Of a stretch of DNA of 64,000 nt, positions 1 to 59,050 are shown one piece after another; the stretch's first letter is position 1; each line of letters begins with the position of its first letter. A program made the position numbers and the translations under genes. The notes below the pieces were generated by a model. It was not told the origin of the DNA. It did no database searches and worked only from the letters and a program-made list of their open reading frames with translations. The stretch lies in IMG/VR virus record IMGVR_UViG_3300037333_000013, positions 100,668 to 164,667 of that record; one strand, 5' to 3'. Source of the DNA: a virus.

Positions 1-1316
1 AATATTTCTTTTCTGCTGATTTTTCCAACGGACTTACCACCAGTAAACGCTGATACAGCACGCATGATATCATCGAGTGCATTTTCATCTCCTTGTGCAG
101 CAAGAACGAATGTAGATAGTACACCTGCACCAAAACCAAACTTCTCGCTATCTAATACCAAGAGAGCTTTGTCATAATATGCCTTGTTGATATCGGCAAT
201 ACGCTTATCGATGGTATTTTGAACACCTTTCTTCTGCGGTTTCTTGCCTTGACTAATATCATTATCCATATCAAGTAGTTGATTTAGGGCACCTGGGTTT
301 CTACCAACTTTAATATTCTGTGCAAGGATTTCTTTCCATCGTTTGGCTACTTCCAACATACCAATTAGAAGTGACAAGACAGTAGATATTGTAGGTAAGT
401 TCGTTTCACTTACATCAAAGTTTATTGTAGGAATCAGCTTCGTTTTCTTAATAGTTTGCGTAACCATACCATACTGCCCATTTGGAACTGGTATGTCCAT
501 TTTCGATTCAGATGCTAATGAGCCAATATAACCATATGCAGTACCAATATGTACTTGACCGTTTGTTCTGTTAAGCTTCTCTTTTGTGTTACTTTTAGCA
601 ATGGATTTTACAGTCCATTCTGAGAAGTGCGTTTCTCCAAGAACATCTATTGTACAGTCTCCTGTAACGACACCAATATCGTAATGGACATTCTTTAGTT
701 TGTCCAGGGTGTTTCTAAAAATCTTGTCTAATGGGTAGTTGAAACCTTTAGATGTAGTTGATGCTAATGTTTCGTTTGCAATGACAACTGCCTGACTTAC
801 AAGTAAGTCTATGTTATTGATGTCAATATGTCTGATAACGTATCCTTTACCACTAACAATATCGTCATCATCTATTGCTAACTCCTTTCCGATATGAGAC
901 TTAGCAATGTCTAATAATGTCTTATCAAGCCCAAACGATGGCAACTTTACAAATTCTTTAACACGCATCTCGTCAGCATACTGTGATGGTGATACACCTG
1001 TCTGACCAGTCATGCTATATAATATGATAGATACACCAACTCTCTTCTCACTACCTTCCTGCATAGGAACATAAACAGCACTAAATGTGTAGTTAGTGTT
1101 GTATTTGTCAGATGCAAACGTATGCATCTTGAAGTTAGCCAATGTTTCGTGTCCCTTGAAAGCTGTTGTTAACAACTCTTCGAATTCATTAATCTCCTGA
1201 GGAACACTAGATGTTGGAGTTGCAAACATATCTGTAATGTCCTTATATTCTCTCCTTGTCATCTCGCTGTCAAATTCCTCTTCGTGCTGTTGTTTGATTT
1301 TTACGTCTACTGCCAT
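1..1316 (-). CDS. chmA: Chimallin, major phage nucleus shell protein (phiKZ gp54-like); 3' end runs off the window
   Basis: Not in the ORF track. Manual translation from ATG 1316 (SD AAGGAG) stays open for 438 codons to the edge. It contains DVLGETHFSEWTV, AYGYIG, LIPTINFD, TISTVLSLL, RNPGALN, LLVLDSEKFG and FVLAAQGDENALDDIMRAVSAFTGG, in the order recalled for chimallin blocks. It sits next to a gp52-like gene and near PhuZ. Confidence 0.82.
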   Translation of the reverse strand, partial: MAVDVKIKQQHEEEFDSEMTRREYKDITDMFATPTSSVPQEINEFEELLTTAFKGHETLANFKMHTFASDKYNTNYTFSAVYVPMQEGSEKRVGVSIILYSMTGQTGVSPSQYADEMRVKEFVKLPSFGLDKTLLDIAKSHIGKELAIDDDDIVSGKGYVIRHIDINNIDLLVSQAVVIANETLASTTSKGFNYPLDKIFRNTLDKLKNVHYDIGVVTGDCTIDVLGETHFSEWTVKSIAKSNTKEKLNRTNGQVHIGTAYGYIGSLASESKMDIPVPNGQYGMVTQTIKKTKLIPTINFDVSETNLPTISTVLSLLIGMLEVAKRWKEILAQNIKVGRNPGALNQLLDMDNDISQGKKPQKKGVQNTIDKRIADINKAYYDKALLVLDSEKFGFGAGVLSTFVLAAQGDENALDDIMRAVSAFTGGKSVGKISRKEI

Positions 1317-1378
1317 TTGTTTCTCCTTAGATTTATGTGTCTCCACTTATTTGTGTATAGCGTGCCATACATCATATC

Positions 1379-1387
1379 AATAATATC
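1379..1387 (-). promoter_or_regulatory. Early-promoter-like motif (GATATTATT) upstream of chimallin
   Basis: Variant of the repeated minus-strand ATATATTATT motif, with an upstream T-run. Confidence 0.45.
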
Positions 1388-1461
1388 CTGATGAAAAAAT
1401 ACCATATTACGATGCACTTCATTATGCGTGGTTTTACCCACAACATAACTACTTCATATAA

Positions 1462-1854
1462 CTATACAGTTAGCGAAGCTTTATAACCCATTCGTTTTAC
1501 ATAGTCAACAACGAACTTAGCTTCGTCTACTGAAATATCTTCTATATTAATGGTAGCGTTCTTCAGCAAGTCATCAAGAACGATGCTATCGTACACCACC
1601 CAATCCAAACAGAATACGTTCGTCTCGTCCAAATAGTCAAATGAGAAGAACCGTTTATCTTTTAAGTCAATGGGGTCTTCATTAATGTATTGATATAACT
1701 CTGCATTTGTTGTGTGTAAGTTTGGGTCGAGTTTAATAGCAGTCCGGTATGTCATATCAGCAATATCAATAACCACACCTTTATATTCAGAACCAATAGG
1801 TCCACCTAATGTTTTAAAACTCGCAGTCTTTCCAGAAACAAAGTTTGTCATCAT
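1462..1854 (-). CDS. Conserved phiKZ gp52-like protein
   Basis: G.EYKGV..I..M.YRTA and VFCLDW patterns, C-terminal KRMGY, and position immediately upstream of chimallin. Confidence 0.6.
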   Translation of the reverse strand: MMTNFVSGKTASFKTLGGPIGSEYKGVVIDIADMTYRTAIKLDPNLHTTNAELYQYINEDPIDLKDKRFFSFDYLDETNVFCLDWVVYDSIVLDDLLKNATINIEDISVDEAKFVVDYVKRMGYKASLTV

Positions 1855-2142
1855 TTATCCTTTTCTTATTAGTATTAGTTTATCGCCAACTAAGTCGTAT
1901 GGTGATAAGTTTGTTATGTCTATATCATAATCTGTCAATGTGGTGTTTAAGCCATCAATAACAGGGAGTATAGAATCAATCACATCACTATTCGAATATC
2001 TACACTGCGATACAATGAAATCAAGTGTCTCATATGTATAGGTATAGTCTATCAACTTTGTGATTAAACAAAGTATCTCGCTCTTTGACAAAACCTTAGC
2101 CAATGGAATCAAGTATCGTGAATCTAAGTCAACAACTACCAT
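1855..2142 (-). CDS. Small acidic hypothetical protein
   Basis: Coupled ORF in a tightly packed leftward operon. Confidence 0.7.
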   Translation of the reverse strand: MVVVDLDSRYLIPLAKVLSKSEILCLITKLIDYTYTYETLDFIVSQCRYSNSDVIDSILPVIDGLNTTLTDYDIDITNLSPYDLVGDKLILIRKG

Positions 2143-2516
2143 ACCGATAACTCCATCATTTCTCCATGTACCTTTTTTATAAGTGTGTCCTTACCCATTA
2201 AGTTAAGTCTACGCAGTTCTTCGAGAAGTTCAATGCCGGACATTATAAGTATGTCTTCATATCCAACTATTGTAGATGCAAGTAAGTTAATACTCTCTTC
2301 GATAGTATAATTAGATAGTGTCTCATATACATCCAGCATCAATCCTCTATCCAACTTATTCTGCAATAATTCATTCTTAGAAAGCAACAACGTATTCAAG
2401 ATGTTTACAATCAAAGCATCAACATCAATATTAATAGTCGTGTTATTAATCATATCTTTTACAATAATAATACTATCTGGAACACGTGCCACAATTGTTT
2501 TACTTAGTTCTTCCAT
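2136..2516 (-). CDS. Small acidic hypothetical protein
   Basis: Overlaps both neighbours; GGAG SD. Confidence 0.75.
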   Translation of the reverse strand: MEELSKTIVARVPDSIIIVKDMINNTTINIDVDALIVNILNTLLLSKNELLQNKLDRGLMLDVYETLSNYTIEESINLLASTIVGYEDILIMSGIELLEELRRLNLMGKDTLIKKVHGEMMELSVW

Positions 2517-2869
2517 ATTAACAACTCTCCATTTCCTAGATACTTTGTCATAATGACACTATCTATATCTTTTAGCAATACTCTGTATATAATGGTATGA
2601 ATATTGTTGACAATATTCATAAAGACTTCTATGTACTCCTCTACATAACCCTCTACAACATCATATGTGTCGTCAGTATCTGGTATATCTACTTCTGATA
2701 TAGCTTCGAATATTGGTCCGAAAATATCCTCTATATCTTCGTCTCCATTAATTTCACCAGCTACATTCCGAGAGATAATGTCAGTAATGCTATCAATGAC
2801 ATTTCCCATTGTTCTAGTACCTAGTACCTCTTCTATAATACATAGTAATGAGTCAGTTACCTTTATCAT
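2504..2869 (-). CDS. Small acidic hypothetical protein
   Basis: ATGA overlap with the upstream ORF; D/E-rich. Confidence 0.75.
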   Translation of the reverse strand: MIKVTDSLLCIIEEVLGTRTMGNVIDSITDIISRNVAGEINGDEDIEDIFGPIFEAISEVDIPDTDDTYDVVEGYVEEYIEVFMNIVNNIHTIIYRVLLKDIDSVIMTKYLGNGELLIWKN

Positions 2870-3216
2870 AACTCAACCACCACAACTTCTGACTTCGTTA
2901 CACATGATAGTTCCATATCTTTACCTTTAAAATTATCAAATATAAATGAATACCATTCATCATAGACATCATCGATAAGTGAACTGATAGTGTCATCTAG
3001 TTCCTCACGAATGTTGATATGATACAATATCATCGTTCCGTTGTATGATGCTATATCTGATATACACTCATCTATTTCATCATTTGTGAGATTTGTGTTA
3101 GTGTATGATAACATTGCATCGACAAGTGATGTAATAGTCGCAATGCCAATATCTTTATCTAAAGACATAAGTGATACTGAGTATTGCATTAAGTCAATGC
3201 GGTGTACTTTACTCAT
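2866..3216 (-). CDS. Small acidic hypothetical protein (start revised to ATG 3216, MSKVHRID)
   Basis: The revised start overlaps the end of the upstream ORF (translational coupling). Confidence 0.7.
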   Translation of the reverse strand: MSKVHRIDLMQYSVSLMSLDKDIGIATITSLVDAMLSYTNTNLTNDEIDECISDIASYNGTMILYHINIREELDDTISSLIDDVYDEWYSFIFDNFKGKDMELSCVTKSEVVVVEL

Positions 3217-3553
3217 CTTTAAAGACCAGATATCCAGACACCATGTCAACTGTGAATTTTGACGGTATATTAATGCGTTTAAATAGCTCATTGCTAATAT
3301 CTGAGATGAGTGACACTGACTTTTTTCTATCTTCTAACACATCATCTATCAAGTCACATAGTGAACCGAAGACGTCGCATTCAATCGTTCCGTGCATAAC
3401 AAACTCATCTCTACATGAAATCACATTCTCGTACACTCCACAAATAAACGCTCTCCTACTACCGCCAACAGCTGTCTTCTTCTTTAACTTGGCTTTATCA
3501 TAAAGCTCAGTTAGCTCAGTTATACCAAGTAACCCATCCATATAGATAGTCAT
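3209..3553 (-). CDS. Small hypothetical protein
   Basis: AGGAGG SD; operon packing. Confidence 0.75.
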   Translation of the reverse strand: MTIYMDGLLGITELTELYDKAKLKKKTAVGGSRRAFICGVYENVISCRDEFVMHGTIECDVFGSLCDLIDDVLEDRKKSVSLISDISNELFKRINIPSKFTVDMVSGYLVFKDE

Positions 3554-3554
3554 A

Positions 3555-3902
3555 CTACCTCCTTATACATATTGTTGCATATATTGTGTCACCAATATCT
3601 TCGAATTTTAAAACAAACAAACATTTTAAGTCGTCTGGTACCTTGTAGATAGGAAATAGTTCACCAAACGTAGACTCAAGCGATGTCATTACATTATCAT
3701 ACAATGCACTCGCTTCTTGATAGCAGAGTTCTGACACACTTGGAAGGAAAGACATAATCTCTCTCATACTATCAACGACATTAAATGCTTGTAATATCAC
3801 AGCGTGCTTTGGTTCGATAGAATGGACTTCAACCATCACCACACCATCACACTCTACATAGTCAAAATCATACATAGCATATAGTTCATTTACTATTTTC
3901 AT
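3555..3902 (-). CDS. Small acidic hypothetical protein
   Basis: Operon packing; ATGA overlap. Confidence 0.7.
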   Translation of the reverse strand: MKIVNELYAMYDFDYVECDGVVMVEVHSIEPKHAVILQAFNVVDSMREIMSFLPSVSELCYQEASALYDNVMTSLESTFGELFPIYKVPDDLKCLFVLKFEDIGDTIYATICIRR

Positions 3903-4210
3903 AATAGAACATGAATCACTACCGTCACTTCGTGTTCACCACTCTTCACGAACTCTTTGATAAAACAGCAGTGTCGTGTAGAAACATTAGGGGTCGGTAA
4001 CATAGGTTTACTAATGAGTAACTTAAATGTCTTCTCTAAATGCATAGTAATATCATTATAAGTACTTACATACTCATCCATATCTGTAATATCACTATCG
4101 AACAATAACGAGTTTATCTCGTGTTCGTTTAAGTTGTTGTTTACGATGTTTAATCCATCGCACGCTAAATCTGTATCTACCTTAATGAGTAATGTACCAC
4201 AAAGAGTCAT
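3899..4210 (-). CDS. Small hypothetical protein
   Basis: AAGGAG SD; operon packing. Confidence 0.7.
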   Translation of the reverse strand: MTLCGTLLIKVDTDLACDGLNIVNNNLNEHEINSLLFDSDITDMDEYVSTYNDITMHLEKTFKLLISKPMLPTPNVSTRHCCFIKEFVKSGEHEVTVVIHVLL

Positions 4211-4859
4211 TCTCTTTCTCCTTCAATCTGTTATTTTCATCACGTATTTTTATAAGAGATTCGTCGAACCTCAACTCTTTTGCTGAACCTAATGGAACAA
4301 CTTCTAACATACTTCCACCATAGTCAACATTGTATACAATAGAACTATCAAAATGAACAGTGTCTATAATACACGCCAATATATAATGTACAATAGCAAG
4401 TGTCTCGTCGTCGATATTATAATATGAGTGTATAGATGATATGAGTGCATCATTAAGTGTCTCCGTTGTTGGAATCACAGGTATGAGTTGTGTATCCTCA
4501 TTGGTTAGGGGATTAAACATAATAAGCTCTTTATGGTCGTGCCTAAAATACTGTGCTAAGTTTAAAGCATCAACAATGAGCATAGCTGGCGATATGTGAA
4601 GATAGGGAACCAGGCGTAAGTTTCGATTATCCTCTTTTCGTACGATAACGTGCTTACTTTCATCTACAATATCAAGATATAGATACCGAATCTGTTTGTT
4701 CTCGTCCAGAATAGGTTCACCATTGTCGTAGCTCAGTCCGCCTAGTTTAATGGCATCTCTCCTATCTGGAAGATAGATACCAATATCTACATCAAAGTTT
4801 GACATACCACACAATGATGCTATCCTGATTACTTCTGTCTCGAAATTAAAAACTCTCAT
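4182..4859 (-). CDS. Hypothetical protein, first full gene of an early operon
   Basis: 225-aa ORF with AAGGAG SD, downstream of the early motif. Confidence 0.8.
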   Translation of the reverse strand: MRVFNFETEVIRIASLCGMSNFDVDIGIYLPDRRDAIKLGGLSYDNGEPILDENKQIRYLYLDIVDESKHVIVRKEDNRNLRLVPYLHISPAMLIVDALNLAQYFRHDHKELIMFNPLTNEDTQLIPVIPTTETLNDALISSIHSYYNIDDETLAIVHYILACIIDTVHFDSSIVYNVDYGGSMLEVVPLGSAKELRFDESLIKIRDENNRLKEKENDSLWYITH

Positions 4860-4974
4860 TGTTCTCCTTTATCATAGAAGCCTACTCCTATCTAAAATAG
4901 GTACTATCTATACTTATGTACTCTTCAATCATTTTATCTCCTTTATACGTTGTTTTTGTCTCATTAGACACTAT

Positions 4975-4984
4975 AATAATATAT
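4975..4984 (-). promoter_or_regulatory. Early-promoter-like motif ATATATTATT
   Basis: Repeated motif resembling the phiKZ early TATATTAC element. Confidence 0.55.
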
Positions 4985-4998
4985 GACTAAAAAGAAAC

Positions 4999-5030
4999 AA
5001 TAGTCTGTGTGCATATGCACACAGACTATT
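4999..5030. terminator. 32-bp perfect palindrome, probable terminator
   Basis: AATAGTCTGTGTGCAT|ATGCACACAGACTATT at the stop of 5029..5805, followed by a T-rich tract on the minus strand. Confidence 0.7.
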
Positions 5031-5805
5031 AACTTAATCCACCAAAACACAAACGTGTGTAATTCCTCATGCGTGTTCTGTCAGCCATAAATAACTGTTT
5101 CTTTGTCTTCTTGTTAATGAGTTCGAAATATTCATTAAAGGAGTTAGAGTAGCTATTGATAATGTTATCTACTTCACCAAGTTCATAACCGTTATATAAG
5201 TGAGCAGTACCCTTTCTAATAATGAGTGTATTGTAGATATATAACTCAACAGCTTTCATTGCTGTCAAAGCAAGGTCAGGATAAAACCCATTTCCTATTT
5301 CGCTAAATGACTCTGAGTAACTAACGAGTATCTTCACGTCAGTATTTGAGAAGTCACTGATGACTTCGTTTACAAGAAACTCATTGCCACTTATTTTCTC
5401 AATGGCAGTTGTCATAAAGGAGTTTTGCCTTACCTCTTTTTGAAATGCTCTTCTTCCAACATTATCAATTCCAGAACCATAGATATCAATGTCGAAATCG
5501 TAACTTGTGACTAAGTTAAGCACATTAATAATGTATCTTCCATTTAGTGCTTCGTCTGGCACTCGCATTAACATAGACCTATCTGTCTCATATACAACAG
5601 TACAAACATCTAACGGTACTGTTATCTCAACACCAGAGATATAGTTCATATCCAGAAAGAACCTAGGTTCCAATGCTCTAGAGCTTATTTTATAATCTAA
5701 ACTGTAGACGCTGTCATTAATCTCTCTATTAAAGAATGCCATCTGCAATACCTGTTCAGGTATACCTTGACGAATGACACCTAAACAATACTGTTTAAAA
5801 CTCAT
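5029..5805 (-). CDS. Conserved phiKZ gp42-like protein
   Basis: IPEQVLQMAF, SLDYKI...PRFFLDMN..G and GYELG motifs; synteny downstream of PhuZ. Confidence 0.6.
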   Translation of the reverse strand: MSFKQYCLGVIRQGIPEQVLQMAFFNREINDSVYSLDYKISSRALEPRFFLDMNYISGVEITVPLDVCTVVYETDRSMLMRVPDEALNGRYIINVLNLVTSYDFDIDIYGSGIDNVGRRAFQKEVRQNSFMTTAIEKISGNEFLVNEVISDFSNTDVKILVSYSESFSEIGNGFYPDLALTAMKAVELYIYNTLIIRKGTAHLYNGYELGEVDNIINSYSNSFNEYFELINKKTKKQLFMADRTRMRNYTRLCFGGLS

Positions 5806-5807
5806 CG

Positions 5808-6830
5808 TTATCCTTTTATATTTTTAAAGAATGAATAGATAGTGTCTCTATCCATCTCAAATAACGAACACTCAAGTTTTCCAACATCGGCTGACTTTGC
5901 TACCAAAAAGAACTGTTTTAGTCCACGTGTGTTACTGAAGAACTGCTTTTTACTCACGCGACTCAATGTATCATAGAGACGCATGACAAGAGACCCATAA
6001 ATAATAAAGTATGGTAGTGTATCATACCTATTGAAGTATGGGAAACTCACTTGCATATATTCTAGTGCCGTACTATGGGTACTCGGTATGTTGTGCAAGA
6101 CAGAATCATAAGTAGCACTTTTGTCCTTTATCTTACGCAATAGTAGTTTCTTATCCTCTTCAAAGATATCTGTGTAGTCTGTAACATAGAACGGATGTAA
6201 ATTTACATTAAAAGGAGAAGCATCAAAGAGGTAGAAATTCATCAGTGATATATTAAACATTCCACATATGGCGTTTGTATAGACGTATCTATACAAGAAC
6301 TCTCTTTCTGAGTATCCTAAGTTACTACCATTTCTTACCCTACAAAAATCTAAATATTGCAGTGCCATTAACGTAATGTCAATGGTATAAAAACAGAACG
6401 AATACGACGCGTCTAGTGGATGTGGGTGTGTGAAACTACAATGGTCAGAATATAATGGCTTTAACGCAACAGCATTATCATACTTTATATCTCTTAGATA
6501 ATCACTTTTCGTATGGATAAAAATATCTCTGTCGTCGTAGTCGGTATATGAAACACGACTCGCTATATTATGTAACCTTACTAACTTCGGTATCATATAT
6601 TCGCACCTATCAATGACATCAAACTTTGTCAATGTTGGCTCTACACCAATAGCGTGTAAAATCTTATATAAAGTATCGTTATGCGATACTCTATCTATCC
6701 TTCCACTGTAATACTCTTTTACTTTTGAAATATCTTTTTTTATCTTCTCTATGTATTGTGGTACTTTACCAGACCCAGAGATATTTAATATCTTATCTGG
6801 AGTAAATCCTATTCTGAAAGCATCTAACAT
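5808..6830 (-). CDS. Conserved phiKZ-like hypothetical protein between PhuZ and the gp42-like gene
   Basis: KVKEYY...VSHNDTL..IL and IDITLMALQY motifs; synteny. Confidence 0.55.
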   Translation of the reverse strand: MLDAFRIGFTPDKILNISGSGKVPQYIEKIKKDISKVKEYYSGRIDRVSHNDTLYKILHAIGVEPTLTKFDVIDRCEYMIPKLVRLHNIASRVSYTDYDDRDIFIHTKSDYLRDIKYDNAVALKPLYSDHCSFTHPHPLDASYSFCFYTIDITLMALQYLDFCRVRNGSNLGYSEREFLYRYVYTNAICGMFNISLMNFYLFDASPFNVNLHPFYVTDYTDIFEEDKKLLLRKIKDKSATYDSVLHNIPSTHSTALEYMQVSFPYFNRYDTLPYFIIYGSLVMRLYDTLSRVSKKQFFSNTRGLKQFFLVAKSADVGKLECSLFEMDRDTIYSFFKNIKG

Positions 6831-6865
6831 TGTTATCCCCTTTGTATAATCAAAAAAGAAAAGTC

Positions 6866-6893
6866 TGATACTAGGACAAATGTCCTAGTATCA
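6866..6893 (-). terminator. Hairpin terminator after phuZ
   Basis: TGATACTAGGACA-AA-TGTCCTAGTATCA followed by a minus-strand T-rich tract. Confidence 0.7.
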
Positions 6894-6895
6894 TA

Positions 6896-7900
6896 TTATA
6901 GTACGAACTCTTCGTCAGTGACCTCCATATCATCATCTTCGAATGTATATTGTTGTGCGTCTTTAATCTGCTTCAAGTTTGTCATGATTGTACCCATTAG
7001 ACCAATGCGTGAGTGCATAGTAAGTGGTAAGCTACCTTTGTCTCCAAGGTTATCTAAGACAGACTTATCTAAAATGACACCTTGTCTATTTGACATAGAT
7101 GGTACATCAATGGTTGTGTTGTTATTGTCCGTCAATACTCTCGTTACGACGTATTGGTCATCTCCAAAGTTATCCCCACTTGTTACGTCTACGATAGAGA
7201 TTCCACTAGGTACATTGAACTTCTTAGCGAGCATATGTGGTTTGAAGAATACTGCCATGTCAGCAGGGTCTAACTGTTCATTCTCGCCACTCACAAAGAT
7301 TGACGTAGCAACAACAAATGATACTACATCTAAGTTTACAGATGTGAGTGTATCGGACATCGCATTGTCCCTGAACATCATACTGATATTTTTTCTGTTC
7401 TTTTTTGCCAAGTTGTGGAATGTCTGGAGCGTGTCAACGGTATTAGATGTGACATGCAATGTACTACTATCACCTATTGTAATCGTTCCAAAGTTCACAT
7501 CTCTCTCTAGGAATTCTTTCACAATGATTGGTGCCGCAACAGAACCAGTTGCACCACTAGCACTATGTACAAGTAGTGCAAAGTTTGTTTCGTTCTCTTC
7601 AAAGATTCCAGTATTATTCAAGAACTTCACAACCCCATTCTTAATCACATCTAAGTTCTCCCCACGAATTGTCCCACTACCAACAACACCTTTACTTCCA
7701 ATTCTGGTGTCGTCAATCTTGAAGAACTCGGCATCAATAGCAGTTGCTTTATGTTTGTTTGCCTCACTTGTGTCTAGCACTAAGTACTCAATATCAGCAA
7801 TCCCATTTCCAGTAATATCTAATGCGTCGAAGTAATCTTTGATTTCGTATGCAATATTTGCACCTGTCCCACCTAATGCGATGATTCTTAATTTTACCAT
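6896..7900 (-). CDS. phuZ: Phage tubulin PhuZ
   Basis: N-terminal IIALGGTGANI, LDTS, GSGTIRGEN, tubulin signature SASGATGS, T7 loop ENEQLDPAD, acidic C-tail ending EEFVL. Confidence 0.92.
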   Translation of the reverse strand: MVKLRIIALGGTGANIAYEIKDYFDALDITGNGIADIEYLVLDTSEANKHKATAIDAEFFKIDDTRIGSKGVVGSGTIRGENLDVIKNGVVKFLNNTGIFEENETNFALLVHSASGATGSVAAPIIVKEFLERDVNFGTITIGDSSTLHVTSNTVDTLQTFHNLAKKNRKNISMMFRDNAMSDTLTSVNLDVVSFVVATSIFVSGENEQLDPADMAVFFKPHMLAKKFNVPSGISIVDVTSGDNFGDDQYVVTRVLTDNNNTTIDVPSMSNRQGVILDKSVLDNLGDKGSLPLTMHSRIGLMGTIMTNLKQIKDAQQYTFEDDDMEVTDEEFVL

Positions 7901-7949
7901 ATTGTCTCCTTTAGACGTTGTTTTAGTTTATGTGTTTATCACACACACC

Positions 7950-7959
7950 AATAATATAT
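7950..7959 (-). promoter_or_regulatory. Early-promoter-like motif upstream of phuZ
   Basis: ATATATTATT on the minus strand, about 50 nt before the ATG. Confidence 0.55.
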
Positions 7960-11989: not shown

Positions 11990-13012
11990 ATGTTTCATGT
12001 GATTTCAATATTTAGTGGTGCCGGCGGGATGGATTTAGGGTTTTGTGGTGGTTTTCGATACTTAGATAACTATTATAGAAAGTTGAAGTTTAAGACAACA
12101 TTGATGGTTGAGAGAGACAAGGAAGCCTGTGATACATTAAAGAACAATAAATGGTTTAAAGATGCAGATATAAAGAATGCAGATATTACAACAATGGATA
12201 AGAAACAATATAGTTGCGATGTATTGATAGGTGGATTTCCGTGTGTAACGTTTAGTGTGGTTGGTAATAGGAATGGTGTAAATGATGATATTAATGGTAA
12301 GTTATATCTATCGTTTGTTGACTACATTACTTTTTACAAACCAAAAGTGTTTGTGGCTGAGAACGTAAAAGGAATACTAAGTTCTAATAAGGGGAGAGAC
12401 AAGGAGATTATACTAAAGTCATTTGAAGATTTAGGGTATGTTGTATCAGTATATCTAGTCAACTTTGCAGATTACGGTGTCCAACAACTGAGAGAAAGAG
12501 TTTTGTTTATTGGGGTGTGTAATAACATTAAAGAGAAGTTTATTCCACCAACAAAGATAACAACAAAACATACCACATCAAGAGAAGCATTATCATCCAT
12601 AAGTGATAATATTGCAAATAATGAAATTGGTATTGTATCTGATAATGTGAAGAAGAAGTTAGAACATATTCCTGAGGGTGGTAACTTTAAAGATTTGCCT
12701 GTTCACTTATCTGTTAAAGGAATGATGTCTAACATATATAGAAAGTTAGACAGGAATAAACCAAGCACAACCGTCATTGCATCTGGTGGTGGTGGGACAT
12801 ATGGGTATCATTACGAAGAACATAGACCACTCACAAACAGAGAACGTGCAAGGTTGCAATCGTTTCCAGATGATTTTGTATTCTATGGTACTGGAAAATC
12901 TGTACGAAGGCAAATCGGAAATGCAGTCCCGCCAGTTGGTATATTCTGGTTTGCACAAGCGATTGAAGCACTGTTATGCAAGATTGATATGAATACGAAA
13001 AAAATAAAGTAG
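11990..13012 (+). CDS. C5 cytosine DNA methyltransferase (orphan)
   Basis: FSGAGG (I), GGFPC (IV), ENVKG (VI), QLRERV (VIII), RARLQSFPD (IX) and QIGNAVP (X). Confidence 0.95.
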   Translation: MFHVISIFSGAGGMDLGFCGGFRYLDNYYRKLKFKTTLMVERDKEACDTLKNNKWFKDADIKNADITTMDKKQYSCDVLIGGFPCVTFSVVGNRNGVNDDINGKLYLSFVDYITFYKPKVFVAENVKGILSSNKGRDKEIILKSFEDLGYVVSVYLVNFADYGVQQLRERVLFIGVCNNIKEKFIPPTKITTKHTTSREALSSISDNIANNEIGIVSDNVKKKLEHIPEGGNFKDLPVHLSVKGMMSNIYRKLDRNKPSTTVIASGGGGTYGYHYEEHRPLTNRERARLQSFPDDFVFYGTGKSVRRQIGNAVPPVGIFWFAQAIEALLCKIDMNTKKIK

Positions 13013-15075: not shown

Positions 15076-15080
15076 GCATT

Positions 15081-15090
15081 AATAATATAT
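15081..15090 (-). promoter_or_regulatory. Early-promoter-like motif ATATATTATT
   Basis: Exact motif preceded by T9 on the minus strand. Confidence 0.55.
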
Positions 15091-16337: not shown

Positions 16338-16447
16338 TTGTTATCCTTTTAGGTTTACTTTATATTCTGCATTACCAGATACACGACTATGACTCTTTTA
16401 ACTTAACACCGCGTGACAAAGTGTTAACAGTAATTCAATTACACCAT

Positions 16448-16457
16448 AATAATATAT
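16448..16457 (-). promoter_or_regulatory. Early-promoter-like motif upstream of the helicase
   Basis: ATATATTATT with an upstream T9. Confidence 0.55.
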
Positions 16458-22789: not shown

Positions 22790-22841
22790 TTGGTTTCCTT
22801 ATAAATTTAATTTACGATTAACTACAAGTTAGTAGCACAGT

Positions 22842-22851
22842 AATAATATAT
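22842..22851 (-). promoter_or_regulatory. Early-promoter-like motif
   Basis: ATATATTATT with an upstream T7. Confidence 0.55.
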
Positions 22852-23839: not shown

Positions 23840-25954
23840 ATGATTCTATTTAAAAAAGATTGGAAGAAGTATAAGGGTGCGATTGTTGACTATAAAACAA
23901 CAAATATCGAAGCACTAAAGACGGCATTCATATATGAGAAGATGGGTGTGAAGAATTGGCAGTTTATACTCGCACTTCATAATCCAGAACTACAAGGTAT
24001 TGACCCACTAGCAAATGACTTACCTAGACACATTAGAGACATGATTCACGATGAGATGAGTGAGAATCCATGGTACTATTTTAGGGAAGTGGCTAGGGTC
24101 CCAGCAAAAGGTGCGATTGAACCAGTTAGGTTTAGACTCAACCGTGCCAATGTGGCACTCTATTGGTGTTACTTTAACCATAAGACAACACTGCTGATAC
24201 AAGCTAGACAAACAGGAAAGTCACTCTCTACAAACCAACTCTATGTATGGATAATAATGTTTGGTTCTGAGAATTATAGTATAGAACTCTTAACGAAAGA
24301 TAACAAGCTACGTGTAGAGAACATTGATGTACTAAAGAAGATTATTGACTTATTACCATCGTGGATGAACTTCCGTTCCAAGAAAGACTCCAACAATAAT
24401 GAATATATCAGCATTAATGCAAAACGCAATAGTTTTAACACAAACGTAGCACAGATGACAGAGACAGGTGCATTTAAAGTAGGTAGGGGTCTTACTGCAC
24501 CAACAGTTGGGGTGGATGAGATTTGTTTTATCTCAAACCTTAGCATTACGTTATCTGCACTACTACCATCAATGGGTGCTGCGAGAGATTCAGCAAGAGA
24601 TTCTGGACAACCATATGGTACTATGTTCTATACGACAGCTGGTTTTCTAGACGACCCTGTTGGAGAATATGTTTACGATGAGATATACTCAAAGGCATAC
24701 CCATTTAGAGAAGAACTCTTTGATTGCGAAGATGTGAAAGCAGTTGATGATGTTGTTGGCAAAGTATCAAAAGCTGGTATTGCACTCATAGAGATGAACC
24801 ACAGGAAATTAGGGTATACCGATGAATGGGTTAAAGATAAGATGGCAACAGCATTGGCTAAAGGAGAACGTGCCGCCGCAGACTACCTTTTGATATGGTC
24901 TAGGGGTAAAGTAACATCTGCACTAGATAAAAATATTATTAAGAGGTTGGAGAACTCTATTCGTGACTCAGAGTCAAATGAGATAACCCCAGAGAACTTA
25001 ACAATAGAGTGGTATATAAGCGACGAGAAACGCGACGAGTATCGCAATAAACCATTCGTGATTGGTCTAGATACATCGAGTGCATTTGGCGATGATGATA
25101 TTGGTATGCATCTACGATGCCCACTATCAGGAGAAACGTTAGGGAAAGGGAAGTATAACAATATCTCACTCAGTACGTTTGGTGAGTTCATGTATAACTT
25201 TATGATGAAGTATAAGAAATCTATCTTAGTGATAGAACGACACTCGTCAGCTATGGGCATATTAGACCACTTAGAGTCACTCTTCCGTGCATCCGGAGAA
25301 AATATCTTCAAACGTGTCTTTAACTGGGTAGTAGATGATTACAAAGCAAGGGAGAATGAATATAGAGAGCTACTATACGGCGATGGTCAACGCAATCCAG
25401 AAGTTTTCTACATTAAACATAGAAAGAAGTTTGGGTTTGTCACAGCTGGTGCAGGTAAATCATCTCGTAATATGCTTTACTCCGAAGTACTGATGGAGTC
25501 TATTAAGTATACTGGTGACTTAACACACGATAGGAACTTGGTATACCAAATGATTAAACTAGAAGTGAAAGATGGTAGAATTGACCACAAAAGTGGTGAA
25601 CACGATGACCTCGTCTTTGCTTATATGTTGACGTACTGGTTCTTGACACGTGCGAAGAACTTAAAATATTATGGTATCAACCCAAACTTGGTATTAAGTA
25701 GCGTGGTGATTAAAGATGAAGAGATGATAGATGAACGTGCGGATATGCAAGATAGAGCAAAACGTAAAAAGCTCATTGATGAGATGGCTAGCATTCTAGA
25801 CACTATGGAAGTGACTGGTGACAGGGTACTTGTTTACAAGTTAAATCATAGATTAAAGATTTTAAAGACGAAGCTAAAAGATTCGGATATCTTGAGTTTA
25901 AACATAGAGGAGAGAATCAGTGAGTTATCGAAAAGACATAAGGTTGGATTATGA
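23840..25954 (+). CDS. terL: Terminase large subunit (phiKZ gp25-like)
   Basis: NPWYYFREV, Walker A RQTGKS, GRGLT..VGVDE Walker B, TTAG, nuclease GLDTS and HDDLVFA. Confidence 0.95.
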   Translation: MILFKKDWKKYKGAIVDYKTTNIEALKTAFIYEKMGVKNWQFILALHNPELQGIDPLANDLPRHIRDMIHDEMSENPWYYFREVARVPAKGAIEPVRFRLNRANVALYWCYFNHKTTLLIQARQTGKSLSTNQLYVWIIMFGSENYSIELLTKDNKLRVENIDVLKKIIDLLPSWMNFRSKKDSNNNEYISINAKRNSFNTNVAQMTETGAFKVGRGLTAPTVGVDEICFISNLSITLSALLPSMGAARDSARDSGQPYGTMFYTTAGFLDDPVGEYVYDEIYSKAYPFREELFDCEDVKAVDDVVGKVSKAGIALIEMNHRKLGYTDEWVKDKMATALAKGERAAADYLLIWSRGKVTSALDKNIIKRLENSIRDSESNEITPENLTIEWYISDEKRDEYRNKPFVIGLDTSSAFGDDDIGMHLRCPLSGETLGKGKYNNISLSTFGEFMYNFMMKYKKSILVIERHSSAMGILDHLESLFRASGENIFKRVFNWVVDDYKARENEYRELLYGDGQRNPEVFYIKHRKKFGFVTAGAGKSSRNMLYSEVLMESIKYTGDLTHDRNLVYQMIKLEVKDGRIDHKSGEHDDLVFAYMLTYWFLTRAKNLKYYGINPNLVLSSVVIKDEEMIDERADMQDRAKRKKLIDEMASILDTMEVTGDRVLVYKLNHRLKILKTKLKDSDILSLNIEERISELSKRHKVGL

Positions 25955-29628: not shown

Positions 29629-31800
29629 ATGGAATATGTAAACGGAGCACCAACTCACTATGCCTCCGGCGTAGAAGATGGTTCAACTCAGAAGTTATAC
29701 CCAACAGAGAAAAAGACTTGTCAATGTCATCCATTGATGTTTTTAAATACTAAGAAAGGACAATATAAAGAGACCACAGTCATTGGTGCTGAGTTTAATG
29801 CTACTTATGGATTAGATAGTCTTAATCCACTCAAGAAGTTCTTTAACCACCAATCACTCTTTGCGTTAGAAGCAATCGGTTTGGCTGCACAAGTGACAGT
29901 GATGAGAGCAATGTATGTACCGATTGACCCAGACGACAATCCCACAAATGGTAGAGCAAACATTACTATCTTTGTTACACGTACATCAAGTGACTTAGCA
30001 GACTCATACCCTATCAAAAGAGATGAGAATGGTTTTGGTGTCTGGGAAGATGGCGAGTGGACAGTGGACGATAGTGACGATGACGCAAAGGTGCCAGTAC
30101 AATACTACCAACTATCAGCTCGATTTATGTCTGATGAAGATATTGATGCACTGCAAGTCAGAACATTTGAAGATGCTATTACAAAAGGTGATGAGACAGT
30201 AGATGGCGAAGTGACACCTATCATGACAATCAAATCTATTGCACACGGGGACTACTACAATGGTATTGGACTGAAGCTCTATCCATTAACAGGTGACAGT
30301 GCAGATAAAGATATGATGGATAAAGCACGTAATATGGCGTACTTTATAGGTCTTGTTGATATGGAGAGTGGTGAAGAGACGATTATTAAAACAATCCAAT
30401 CGACAGACGGCTATACTGTTACATTTGACCCAAATGCATCACACCCTGTCACTGGTGTCACAACAACATTAGAAGACTTGTTCCCTAAAGGATTTGAGAA
30501 TACAACGCGTCCAGAGTACGAATATAAGGCACCTATCATCGGAGAAGTCATCTATCACAGGATTGGTATTCGTCCACTATTTGAGAATATCTTGACGAAA
30601 GAAGCGGAAAACTTCGATGGAACAGTGATTCCCTGGAGTGACTTTACCGAGTTTGAGTCAGAAGCAGCAAAAGAAGAAGCACTCGCTGTACCATACATCT
30701 TAAACTTCATTAACTGTATCTACACATCTGGTGCACCTATGGAGAACACACGTCGTTCTGATAACCTCGTACTTAATGATGAGTCATTGGCATATGCTGG
30801 TAACAGAATCAATATGACAAAAGATACCACACTATTCTTAGAAGGTGGTCTAGATGGAATGAATATTGTAGACAACTACGATGACTATCTTGTAGAACAC
30901 GAAGCAGACTTAATTCGTAGACTCACGGCATATGCAGACAAGGACAGTGAACAGACACACTTAGCACTCTCTACTGTCTCAGAGTTTGTAGATACTGGTT
31001 ATACATTAGACACGACCTTGAAGATGGGTATTTTTACTTCATATCGTACTGATGTGAGACTGATTGCGTCTACATATGATGTCAACCCACTAAATAAAGA
31101 TATCAGTGTACAAGAACATATCTCTAGAGGTGTATTACTGAATGCTATCTTATCTTTATCTATCGAGTCAGCTGACTTTAATACACCTGGATTTAGGACA
31201 GCTATCTTAGCAGGTTCTGGGCTAAGTACCACTGGCTTCTTTAGATACAGAGTATCAACCGCATTAGACTTTGCACTCAAGAATGTAAAGATGTTCCGTG
31301 GAGATACGTGGGATACAACATATGAGTTCAGCTACGATGAGGGAAATATTGTAGAGTACCTGACTGATGTAACACCTAGACGTATGCCTGAGAGCCAGAA
31401 GACAAATGCGTGGGATGCTGGGATTATTTGGACAGATGCTGCAGACACACTGAAAGTAAGATACCCACAAATTGGAACGATATATCCTGATGATACTTCT
31501 ATCTTAAAGAACTGGTATATTGCTGTGGCTGTCTGTTACATAGAGAAGAAACTTGATGAAGCACACAGAGAAGTTCAAGGTGCTGCTGTATTTACACAAG
31601 CACAGCAAATCAAGAAGACACAAGAGAAGATTGTAGATAAAATCAGTGGTAAGTTTGCGAACATTGTAAATCCAACTGTTGAAGTCTTCAAGACACCTAG
31701 AGACATGTCCGCTGGATATGCTGTAACTGCCAGAGTTAAAATCTGGGGTCCATCGATGCTCACTGTACTAAACAGTAGTATCTTAGCGTTAAGAGCGTAA
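29629..31800 (+). CDS. Tail sheath protein (phiKZ gp29-like)
   Basis: NGAP....GVED, HPLMFL..KKG, YG.DS.....FFNHQ, LEGGLDG, DTGYTL, ESADFNTP and TIYPDDTSIL. Confidence 0.88.
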   Translation: MEYVNGAPTHYASGVEDGSTQKLYPTEKKTCQCHPLMFLNTKKGQYKETTVIGAEFNATYGLDSLNPLKKFFNHQSLFALEAIGLAAQVTVMRAMYVPIDPDDNPTNGRANITIFVTRTSSDLADSYPIKRDENGFGVWEDGEWTVDDSDDDAKVPVQYYQLSARFMSDEDIDALQVRTFEDAITKGDETVDGEVTPIMTIKSIAHGDYYNGIGLKLYPLTGDSADKDMMDKARNMAYFIGLVDMESGEETIIKTIQSTDGYTVTFDPNASHPVTGVTTTLEDLFPKGFENTTRPEYEYKAPIIGEVIYHRIGIRPLFENILTKEAENFDGTVIPWSDFTEFESEAAKEEALAVPYILNFINCIYTSGAPMENTRRSDNLVLNDESLAYAGNRINMTKDTTLFLEGGLDGMNIVDNYDDYLVEHEADLIRRLTAYADKDSEQTHLALSTVSEFVDTGYTLDTTLKMGIFTSYRTDVRLIASTYDVNPLNKDISVQEHISRGVLLNAILSLSIESADFNTPGFRTAILAGSGLSTTGFFRYRVSTALDFALKNVKMFRGDTWDTTYEFSYDEGNIVEYLTDVTPRRMPESQKTNAWDAGIIWTDAADTLKVRYPQIGTIYPDDTSILKNWYIAVAVCYIEKKLDEAHREVQGAAVFTQAQQIKKTQEKIVDKISGKFANIVNPTVEVFKTPRDMSAGYAVTARVKIWGPSMLTVLNSSILALRA

Positions 31801-36644: not shown

Positions 36645-37409
36645 TTAATAGGCTAAGAAGACACAACTGTCGTCATCACACCCAGTCAAAGCGGTTGCGA
36701 GTGTTGAATAGAATGAACGGTCAGCATCACTCTCAGTATCTGTCATAGATTTCGCTCTACTGTACTCATAGAGTTTTAATGCATCTCTATCACTAATGAC
36801 AGACTCTTCACTTTCAATATCAAAGTCTAACCACTGACTCTGTCTAGCTACTCTTATGCCTGGACGACTCACTCTATCATACCCAACAATAAAGTAAGAC
36901 TCTTTGTAAAGGACACCATTAATCGTTTGTCTATTACTAAACCCACGAAGACTAAATGCTACGTCAATAGTGTTGTCTTTCAAGTCAGAACGTAACTTAG
37001 CACCGAGTGGAGAATCTGTTGGTGTGATATTTGCTCTTACCAAATAAACAGGTTCTTCTTGGAATGCTACCCTTGTTGGATTAACGTCTAATGTAATTTT
37101 ATTCATAACACAACATGTGTTATTTTCGTCAAAAGAACGAAACCTCTCTACAAACTCTTCTACTCTTTCATCAAATCTCATTGTTGGGTGTTCCACCTCT
37201 GATTTGATATTACCAGCACTCGCTTCCTTGTTGAGTCTATCCGTAGATGAGAACAGATTACGCACACTGTCGCTGATGACATAGAATGCACCCTCTGAGC
37301 TTGAAACGTTGTATGCACCACAGATGATATCAAATGAACCATCACTATGTTCCTTAGAGCTTAAGTTAGCACCCTCTATCGTAATATTGTCAAATGAGAA
37401 TTTACTCAT
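36645..37409 (-). CDS. Prohead maturation protease (phiKZ gp175-like)
   Basis: GAYNV.S..G.FY, EVEHP (catalytic His), AFSLRG (Ser) and YDRVSRPGI; synteny with the vRNAP genes. Confidence 0.85.
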   Translation of the reverse strand: MSKFSFDNITIEGANLSSKEHSDGSFDIICGAYNVSSSEGAFYVISDSVRNLFSSTDRLNKEASAGNIKSEVEHPTMRFDERVEEFVERFRSFDENNTCCVMNKITLDVNPTRVAFQEEPVYLVRANITPTDSPLGAKLRSDLKDNTIDVAFSLRGFSNRQTINGVLYKESYFIVGYDRVSRPGIRVARQSQWLDFDIESEESVISDRDALKLYEYSRAKSMTDTESDADRSFYSTLATALTGCDDDSCVFLAY

Positions 37410-45146: not shown

Positions 45147-45226
45147 TGTTTTCCTTTGTCAATTAGTCATTGAAACCATCTCTGTCATTGGTTTTTTCTG
45201 ACATATACTTACATAAAGGACATAAA

Positions 45227-51708: not shown

Positions 51709-53427
51709 CTAATCCTTTAAAATTCCATCATCTGATGTTGCTAATGAACTGACATATTCAGTCGCCGCGTCGTTGTCTTTGATTACATTGTTTAGTGCCA
51801 CGTCTATTAAGTGGCAATTAATCTTCTCTTGTTCTGTTAATAGCACCTCACCATTTTTGCCGAACATTGCATTTGGGTTGAGTCTGAGTAGTGGAGATGG
51901 TGCTGTCTTATTCAGCCCAAACATACTCCCTACATACACATGACCACCTCTGAGTTTCTTAATGCTTGGTGGGAAAACATTACTGCTGTTCTTCGATGGT
52001 GCTTTAACACCTGTCCCTCTCTCTTGTACGTCCATCATACAGGTAACTTTGAAGTACCTATTCGCACTTGTTGATGTGACCAATAAGCTAGAGAGAATCT
52101 TTGAACTACTCTGTACAATCTTTAAGATAGACATAGGTTTAATCTTCTCACCATTGACAATCTTGTTAGCCGACTCCCAACTGATTGAGTTTGCTTTGAC
52201 TTGCTTGGTAATGTCAGCGAACGCTTTGTTAAAACCCTCTATCATATGATACATCACATAGTAGTTCACTTCTAAGTGCTTCTCACTGATGTCAAATCGA
52301 TTGCTGAGAGATTGCCTCTTTAACTTCTTAAATACTTTACCAGATGTATATATAAAGTCCCAGAAATCCTTGATGTTGTATCCTGCTGACTTTGCTTGGT
52401 CTGATGAGATACTATCAACATACCTACCCATGGCTTCTTCAAACTCACGCATAGCAGGTACATAGCCTGTACTCGATAAATCATCTCTAAACTCAATCTT
52501 CCCAACCAAGAACTTCCAATACTCAATGTCATCTTCCAAACATCGTATCTCTTCGAATGCATTAGCGATGTCTGGAAAGATGTCAAATGCATAGATGACA
52601 GACGTGGCTAGTATCCGTATGAAGTCATTGGAATTACTATCTATAATGACAGCTTTGTCGTGCGTCTCATACTTGATGTCCTTTAGTCGTTTAATCTTTG
52701 AATGTGCTGTTGTAAATATAAGATGTTTTCCATCATTGTACTTTGCGATTTCCTCCTTATCTCTCGTAATAATAAAGGTCTTGTTCTTGATATACTTCTT
52801 CAATACGCCACTGAGTCCGTACTTAGCAAGTGTATATAGTAAGAACGGTACGTTGGGTGTACCAAATGCAGGGTTGCTAATTTTACGTAGTTGGTAGAAC
52901 TTGTCAGCGTATAGGATAATCTCCGTGCTAGCTACACCATTGACATTCAACAACCACTCAAAGTCTCTCACATTCAATTTCGTATTGAATGGCTTAAAGA
53001 AGAGTGCTCCACCGAAGAAGGCTATAATCTTATCGGAGAGTACTGGCATATTGTACCACTCGGTATCTGAGATATGGTATGTCCCTTCATTGTTGAGTGC
53101 TAAGACATAGAGTGGTTTATATATAGGTCTGTCATCATAAGCGAACTCAAAGATGACTTTCCTAATAGATGTTTTGCTAATATCTAACTTGACCTTTCCT
53201 TGTTTTGGTTTTCCGTCTCCTTGTGTTAGGAGTGAGTCAAACTCTTCAAAAGGCGTCATATATCGATAACCAACATAACGAAACTTCTCAATGTTTCTCG
53301 TAGATGTTTGTAAAATACCACCTAAGTACTCAGCACTATCCTTGAGGTCTATTGATGCCCTACCTAATTTTACTTCTTGTGAGAACTCAGTGTCACTAAA
53401 TGCGAGTTCTTCAAACAGTTCATTCAT
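51709..53427 (-). CDS. Virion RNA polymerase beta N-terminal fragment (phiKZ gp149-like)
   Basis: RYVGYRYMTPFEE, YHISD.....PVLSD, YTLAKYG and RLNP motifs. Confidence 0.75.
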   Translation of the reverse strand: MNELFEELAFSDTEFSQEVKLGRASIDLKDSAEYLGGILQTSTRNIEKFRYVGYRYMTPFEEFDSLLTQGDGKPKQGKVKLDISKTSIRKVIFEFAYDDRPIYKPLYVLALNNEGTYHISDTEWYNMPVLSDKIIAFFGGALFFKPFNTKLNVRDFEWLLNVNGVASTEIILYADKFYQLRKISNPAFGTPNVPFLLYTLAKYGLSGVLKKYIKNKTFIITRDKEEIAKYNDGKHLIFTTAHSKIKRLKDIKYETHDKAVIIDSNSNDFIRILATSVIYAFDIFPDIANAFEEIRCLEDDIEYWKFLVGKIEFRDDLSSTGYVPAMREFEEAMGRYVDSISSDQAKSAGYNIKDFWDFIYTSGKVFKKLKRQSLSNRFDISEKHLEVNYYVMYHMIEGFNKAFADITKQVKANSISWESANKIVNGEKIKPMSILKIVQSSSKILSSLLVTSTSANRYFKVTCMMDVQERGTGVKAPSKNSSNVFPPSIKKLRGGHVYVGSMFGLNKTAPSPLLRLNPNAMFGKNGEVLLTEQEKINCHLIDVALNNVIKDNDAATEYVSSLATSDDGILKD

Positions 53428-55504: not shown

Positions 55505-55546
55505 ATTTTCTCCTTATAGTATCTACTCTAATAATATATAGATATA

Positions 55547-58909: not shown

Positions 58910-59050
58910 ATCTTTCTCCTTACTACTTATTTAAGATAATCAAACCTACTATCTAGGAACAGCAATTCAATACATTACAATAATATACCAGTAAAAAAAA
59001 AGCCATACAAATATGGGAACAAACACGCTTACTTGATAAAAGGAGATACT

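Follow-up and report, generated by a model that had tools for sequence, protein, structure and literature searches.

We analyzed a 64,000-nucleotide stretch of viral DNA (hereafter the window) that comprises bases 100668-164667 of the linear IMG/VR virus record IMGVR_UViG_3300037333_000013, which is 164,667 bp long and estimated to be ~62% complete. At the left edge of the window, on the minus strand, lies a gene that we identify with high confidence as chmA, which encodes chimallin, the major protein of the phage-nucleus shell; we place the uncultured phage that carries it on a deep branch of the Chimalliviridae. A preliminary description of this DNA had pointed to an open reading frame (ORF) that starts at position 1316, is missing from the ORF track and stays open off the left edge. 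An ORF listing with open ends allowed bore this out: a minus-strand frame occupies 3..1346 and is open at the window's left edge, and it was absent from the track because it runs off that edge and is listed only when open ends are permitted. Translation from the ATG at 1316 yields 438 residues without a stop inside the window. Extending the frame past the window, as that description had proposed, closes it at contig 100172; on the parent record chmA spans contig 100172-101983 and encodes 603 amino acids (aa). The window therefore holds the first 438 of 603 codons (1..1316, minus strand), and the remainder (contig 100172-100667) lies to its left. We take the ATG at 1316 to be the true start because a Shine-Dalgarno box, AAGGAG (1323..1328, minus strand; read from the sequence), precedes it by 6-7 nt and because the N-terminal residues MAV of the candidate are common to its relatives. 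Directly after the stop codon is a terminator consisting of a perfect 14-bp hairpin and a T-tract (contig ~100137-100167). Two small opposite-strand ORFs converge on this terminator.

Upstream of the gene we found a probable early promoter of the virion RNA polymerase (RNAP) type, the variant GATATTATT (1378..1387, minus strand), which lies 70 nt before the chmA ATG and is one base off the core TATATTATT. This core, which resembles the known early promoter core of phiKZ-type phages, TATATTAC, occurs in 31 copies on the contig; 26 fall in the ~6% of the sequence that is intergenic, 29 are on the minus strand, and most are located 33-140 nt before a start codon. The copy at chmA is the only intergenic, gene-strand ATATTATT without a leading T, while the gene for the tubulin PhuZ has the consensus TATATTATT at 7949-7957. 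Sites of this kind in the window also include 4974-4982, 15080-15088, 16447-16455, 22841-22849, 55529-55537, and 58978-58986, and their flanks often contain TTAC or ATAT upstream and GTGTA downstream. A scan for sigma-70 promoters around chmA found no more sites than in shuffled sequence. Early expression of chmA from a promoter of the virion-RNAP type is plausible.

To place the protein in a family, we compared it with sequence and profile databases. The full-length 603-aa protein matches phrog_4795, "nuclear shell protein," in PHROGs (E value 1.6e-8). Only the full-length protein produces this match, as the matching region is mostly in the C-terminal half; the 438-aa fragment encoded in the window had no match in Pfam, PHROGs, PDB sequences or, by tblastn, 50,697 phage records. 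When 1.84 billion representatives were searched exhaustively with phmmer, 42 relatives emerged, 570-654 aa in length except for one fragment, that align nearly end to end with the candidate. The only close relative among them is P0004 (42% identity, also 603 aa, on a 19.5-kb contig); the others are 21-28% identical to the candidate. All 42 are at most 25% identical to any chimallin from a cultured phage, so a profile of these sequences is not seeded by canonical chimallins. In the PDB, this family profile nevertheless matched the PhuN/chimallin proteins of PhiPA3, Goslar, and 201phi2-1 from end to end (E values 9e-45 to 3e-38). As a stricter, non-transitive test, we used hhalign to compare a profile of the candidate and P0004 only with a profile of eight annotated reference chimallins from cultured phages (phiKZ, PhiPA3, 201phi2-1, Goslar, RAY, Eowyn, RP12, and LucasX), resulting in a probability of 97.9% and an E value of 3.7e-13 over 494 columns at 14% identity. 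By the PHROG, hhalign, and PDB profile matches, the protein has the full-length sequence-profile homology expected of the chimallin (ChmA/PhuN) family, and it is almost certainly a chimallin homologue.

The predicted structure agrees with this assignment. AlphaFold2, run on the 42-sequence alignment, gave a model with a predicted local distance difference test (pLDDT) score of 79.5 and a predicted template modeling (pTM) score of 0.80, in which residues 1-36 and ~555-603 are disordered. The model contains the two-domain core of chimallins, an alpha/beta N-domain followed by a GNAT-like C-domain. When it was searched against the PDB with Foldseek, ranks 1-9 were all chimallin (E values 4e-22 to 4e-15, template modeling [TM] scores 0.67-0.74, 10-15% identity), and rank 10 had an E value of 8e-3 and a TM score of 0.08. 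Weaker fold matches were found to the GNAT toxins TacT3, AtaT, and KacT (residues ~200-545) and to Enterococcus faecalis EF_1977 (residues 40-195), similarities that have been published for the C- and N-domains of chimallin (Laughlin et al. 2022, PMC9365700). Unlike the candidate, the tRNA-acetylating toxins AtaT, TacT, and KacT consist of one domain of ~170 aa and have neither the N-terminal domain nor lattice tails.

Chimallin protomers of 201phi2-1 are tied into tetramers, and tetramers into a lattice, by three tail segments, the N-terminal segment (NTS, residues 48-61) and the C-terminal segments CTS1 (590-611) and CTS2 (622-631) (Laughlin et al. 2022, PMC9365700). In the candidate, the segment IRFADNSQLLRHAV...G aligns with the CTS1 motif QRF.GNS...VSG of 201phi2-1, PhiPA3, and phiKZ, with the CTS1-like RFADNS...AV...G aligned to 201phi2-1 residues 590-611. 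A C-terminal NPYAY(M/Q)M is kept in 3/3 members of the clade, and a DI..MF ahead of the first helix, conserved in the clade, resembles the NTS motif (I/V)N..(F/L/M). The protein has 80 acidic and 69 basic residues, an acidic excess as in the references. The ordered motif blocks from which the gene had originally been recognized are present and fall on conserved columns of the family, including P296, G342 (in NPGAL), D389, and T425 (in FTGG); in the alignment, the DVLG block corresponds to D..G.P.R.D in cultured chimallins, with the P, R, and D replaced. The view of the ORF as a strongly diverged chimallin, which a lack of any profile or structural match would have undermined, is thus upheld by profile matches (PHROG, family profile, and hhalign), by the fold matches, and, as regards the divergence, by the absence of BLAST and tblastn similarity.

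Next, we built a maximum-likelihood tree of the 42 relatives and the eight references; as it is unrooted and has long branches, we use it for separation only. The candidate and P0004 share a long common stem (1.54 changes per column) inside a 19-member branch (Shimodaira-Hasegawa-like approximate likelihood-ratio test [SH-aLRT] support 100) made up purely of metagenomic singletons, and all eight cultured references are on the opposite side of the tree from this branch. Compared with the cultured chimallins (201phi2-1 gp105, Goslar gp189/gp246, PhiPA3 gp53, and phiKZ gp54; PDB 7SQQ-7SQV, 8FNE, and 8IGG), the candidate is only 10-15% identical, has a shorter C-terminus, has replaced the P, R, and D mentioned above, and is encoded by a chmA that does not adjoin the gene for the non-virion RNAP (nvRNAP) beta' subunit. 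A tblastn search of the phage records with the nearest distant relative, P0005, found nothing, nor did a search of IMG/VR for related loci with the two-sequence profile, P0022, and P0009. Sun et al. (2025, BMC Genomics, PMC12625630) used HMMER and structure prediction to mine IMG/VR v4.1 along with other sources and reported 2,001 genomes that encode chimallin; their metagenome-mined phages are likewise jumbo-phage contigs encoding chimallin and PhuZ. A search of the text of that paper found synteny unmentioned and five uses of "recombination," all generic (repair/recombination functions and one cited title). With divergent chimallins already mined from metagenomes, the present phage is an expected, though distant, addition to the known chimallin family.

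We then characterized the genomic neighborhood of chmA, beginning with the genes upstream of it on the minus strand. Directly upstream is a gene for a 130-aa SH3DP-domain protein (1462..1854, minus strand; phrog_3235) that matches Pfam PF20287 at 26.3 bits, just above the cut-off of 25; Pfam describes this domain as "SH3 fold domain associated with phage DNA polymerases." It is followed by eight small to medium orphan ORFs (1855..4859, minus strand) with almost no PHROG matches, which extend to a gene for a DUF7484 protein homologous to phiKZ gp42 (5029..5805, minus strand; PF24302, E value 9e-43; phrog_3179, E value 8e-38; tblastn to gp42, E value 1e-12). Paralogy among the small ORFs between chmA and phuZ found no sequence support in all-versus-all BLASTP and phmmer comparisons (best E values ~0.002-0.01 in a 14-sequence database). 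Beyond the gp42-like gene are a conserved jumbo-phage protein (phrog_3938; 5808..6830, minus strand) and PhuZ (6896..7900, minus strand). PhuZ matches phrog_4733 over its full length (E value 5e-37) and phiKZ gp39 at 24.6% identity (E value 2e-9), and it scores 26.8 bits against the Pfam tubulin model, below the gathering cut-off of 33; it shows the profile match to the PhuZ family and to the tubulin GTPase domain by which PhuZ tubulins are recognized.

The wider gene content is that of a phiKZ-type phage. The presence in the window of PhuZ, split RNAP genes, and phiKZ-type terminase, sheath, and protease had been noted from the letters, and PHROGs matched every one of them: the terminase at 23840-25954, the sheath at 29629-31800, the head protease at 36645-37409, and two adjacent split multisubunit RNAP beta-type genes on the minus strand at 39532-43545 (phrog_3148, E value 2.5e-251) and 43545-45146 (phrog_2986, E value 4e-133). 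Multisubunit RNA polymerase genes that are split in this way typify the phiKZ-type phages. Among 313 matching phage records, none exceeds ~25% identity to the large RNAP subunit, which indicates that the whole phage is deeply diverged. A gene for a non-virion RNAP subunit like phiKZ gp123 lies at 51709..53427 (minus strand; phrog_2943), and phiKZ gp123 carries the same product name. The window also encodes a ribonucleotide reductase, a DNA methyltransferase, a helicase, RecJ, SbcC, and a ligase, and elsewhere on the contig are homologues of phiKZ gp50, 55, 65, 66, 68, 71, 73, 74, 75, 80, 82, and 84. With chimallin, multisubunit RNAPs of both the virion and the non-virion type, and conserved genes for structural proteins, the ~62%-complete record has the gene set that marks the Chimalliviridae, one part of a full core of 68-72 genes. 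The methyltransferase gene (11990-13012; phrog_116, E value 2e-69) is on the plus strand, embedded in the minus-strand early-gene region, and GC content and GC skew shift locally around it, at 12-14 kb. In a 2,082-aa ORF (45170-51418), the N-terminal region is that of a phiKZ-type tail fibre (phrog_3201), and the C-terminal region is endolysin-like (phrog_880).

Gene order around chmA departs from that of the cultured phages. The nvRNAP beta' gene directly follows chmA in 8/8 cultured references, and gene order in the core block is described as conserved (Prichard et al. 2023, PMC10299810). The preliminary description had expected the beta' gene next downstream of chmA here as well, and had drawn on gp52/gp54 synteny; neither expectation survived. 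On this contig the gp55-like beta'-N gene (contig 87174-88385) adjoins a gp50-like DNA polymerase gene (contig 88519-90615), and chmA is ~9.5 kb upstream of the polymerase gene, which places beta' ~11.7 kb from chmA, behind the polymerase. No chimallin was found on this contig at the phiKZ-type position between the DNA polymerase and beta' genes. No homologue of gp52 or gp53 is near chmA, and the SH3DP gene has no BLAST or Pfam link to phiKZ gp51, gp52, or gp53; the neighbors match phiKZ gp42 and gp39 instead. Between chmA and the polymerase gene is a ~9.5-kb block of orphan ORFs (contig 90616-100171; L017:3717-13272) that contains four TATATTATT promoters. The nearest branch-mate with a long contig, L016 (IMG/VR record IMGVR_UViG_3300026521_000466), shares the co-directional series of PhuZ, phrog_3938 protein, DUF7484 protein, small ORFs (six at the equivalent position), SH3DP gene, chmA, DNA polymerase gene, and nvRNAP beta'-N gene. 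Its chmA product is 22.5% identical to the candidate; it does not have the ~9.5-kb orphan block, for which no homologues were found in L016. This phage has the gene order of L016 plus an inserted orphan block. Judging from these two arrangements, the metagenome-only branch would have chmA before the DNA polymerase gene and not after it, unlike all cultured chimalliviruses.

Several observations weigh against reading this gene as that of the shell protein. Pairwise similarity to any characterized chimallin is essentially nil: BLAST against phiKZ gp54 gave no match at E ≤ 1, BLASTP against Goslar chimallin reached only an E value of 0.006 over 181 aa, the tblastn search of the phage records with the window fragment was negative, the full-length protein has no match in Pfam, and the two-sequence profile of the candidate and P0004 found nothing in the PDB at E ≤ 10. 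The structural evidence, itself a prediction, leans on a family alignment that the candidate recruited; a control fold with only the tight clade as alignment had a pLDDT of 35 and was collapsed and unusable. Where 8/8 cultured references have the P, R, and D of the D..G.P.R.D block, the candidate has T, F, and E. A counterpart of CTS2 is uncertain, as the C-terminal tail is ~10 aa shorter than in 201phi2-1. The adjacency of chmA and nvRNAP beta', which is typical of the family though not defining, is absent. Finally, the record is ~62% complete, which leaves room for a second shell gene elsewhere in the genome. For example, the candidate could be a paralogue that has the chimallin fold but serves a lesser purpose, for instance as an accessory part of the shell, or another one altogether, with the true major shell gene in the unsequenced ~38%; such a paralogue might show the extreme divergence, the loss of invariant residues, and the position away from nvRNAP beta' that we see. 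We consider this very unlikely, since the candidate is the sole chimallin-like locus on the 165-kb record, it has its full length and putative counterparts of the three tails, no chimallin lies between the DNA polymerase and beta' genes, and known chimalliviruses carry one chmA (PMC10299810). The orthologue in L016 occupies the same SH3DP-chmA-DNA polymerase-beta' block, which argues that the candidate sits where chmA was ancestrally located in this branch.

A scan of metagenomes for comparison contigs found two from one sample, Ga0256828, a short-read assembly. The first, L012, is a 2,010-bp contig that contains chmA only, and its protein differs from the candidate at three residues. The second, L013, was taken from a 26.9-kb contig; its chmA (L013:10001-11815) encodes a protein 84% identical to the candidate, whereas its ~35 flanking ORFs, across 19.6 kb, are 97-100% identical to those of this phage, and mostly 100%. 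At the nucleotide level, chmA of this phage and that of L013 differ by 318 mismatches in 1,812 nt (17.5%), compared with 67 mismatches in the other ~17.8 kb (0.38%). Both ends of the diverged block are inside the gene. Nothing differs in the promoter, leader, Shine-Dalgarno box, or first eight codons; the two sequences part at codon 9, where there is an indel of one codon, and they rejoin 35 nt before the stop, and the terminators of the two alleles differ at one loop base only.

To determine how these alleles have evolved, we estimated synonymous (dS) and nonsynonymous (dN) divergence by the Nei-Gojobori method and found a dS of 0.805, a dN of 0.092, and a dN/dS of 0.115 between them. The alleles are old and under purifying selection; we reject the idea that hypermutation of this locus or positive selection produced the divergence, given the dS of 0.80, the dN/dS of 0.115, and the gene-wide spread of the changes. 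These values also bear on the possibility that chmA is a decaying relic in a phage that no longer builds a nucleus, which the lost invariant residues and a promoter core one base off consensus might suggest. We regard this as less probable still than a paralogue: the dN/dS is low, all 603 codons form an unbroken frame that has a strong Shine-Dalgarno box and a terminator, P0004 retains the protein at 42% identity, and the genes for PhuZ, nvRNAP, and virion RNAP are intact.

Within the diverged block, where the alleles otherwise differ by ~20%, a tract of 137 nt (codons 61-106) shows no difference at all, and it looks like the product of a later gene conversion. L012 and L013 have identical flanks, covering at least 99-102 nt outside the gene and 24-35 nt inside each end; both alleles therefore share their immediate backbone, and the 2-kb contig represents the other route through an assembly bubble. 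From these contigs, allele and backbone can be linked over ~100-140 nt only. The pattern as a whole is best explained by homologous recombination that would have moved almost exactly the chmA coding sequence between near-identical backbones. An alternative that concerns this allele swap alone is an assembly chimera, in which the 84% allele came from a generally diverged phage and was joined to this backbone. Short-read metagenome contigs, an alternative allele present as a 2-kb "bubble" contig, and linkage limited to ~100-140 nt are all compatible with a chimera, but identical flanks at both ends are unexpected for a genome generally 17% diverged, and the perfectly identical 137-nt tract inside the gene also speaks against it. 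In addition, the sharp switches in divergence are themselves a signature of recombination: a change from 0% to ~20% in real molecules points to it whichever backbone carries the allele. We thus consider a chimera unlikely, and recombination the preferred account.

It has been argued that horizontal transfer of core chimallivirus genes is rare and that phages infecting the same cell recombine less because of the nucleus (PMC10299810; PMC13282480), and our full-text literature searches found no description of chimallin allele exchange. One tentative proposal, to which we give a low probability, is that natural populations of chimalliviruses maintain chmA as a balanced "cassette" open to exchange, in which two ancient alleles (dS 0.80) persist on one backbone that differs by ~0.4% and still swap internal tracts. 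Two forces might maintain such a cassette. If the alleles do not co-assemble, the shell might serve as a marker of self and non-self that keeps co-infecting genomes in separate nuclei; or a host defence might recognize the shell protein. Either, if true, would contradict both the limited horizontal transfer of core nucleus genes and the nucleus as a limit on recombination.

Taken as chmA, the gene probably encodes the functional major shell protein of this phage. By homology with 201phi2-1, Goslar, and PhiPA3, the 603-aa protein would consist of an alpha/beta N-domain (~40-195), a GNAT-like C-domain (~197-550), and flexible tails. Its synthesis would most likely start very early, at a dedicated promoter of the type that the virion RNA polymerase reads. 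ChmA would form tetramers in which the NTS-like tail docks on a neighboring protomer, and the tetramers may join through the CTS1- and CTS2-like tails into a square lattice. The resulting shell would enclose the replicating phage DNA and keep host nucleases out, and PhuZ, encoded ~5.6 kb upstream on the same strand, would position it.

This annotation puts an uncultured phage firmly among the nucleus-forming phages. It also shows how far the sequence of chimallin can drift (10-15% identity) while the predicted fold and lattice tails are kept, which can aid the construction of better chimallin profiles. Two aspects go beyond routine annotation. First, the order SH3DP-chmA-DNA polymerase-beta' appears to be a different core gene order that holds across the branch. 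Second, a shell gene that alone seems to have been exchanged between near-identical strains would show, from nature, that a core nucleus gene can recombine, even though the nucleus of this family has been argued to restrict recombination (PMC10299810; PMC13282480).

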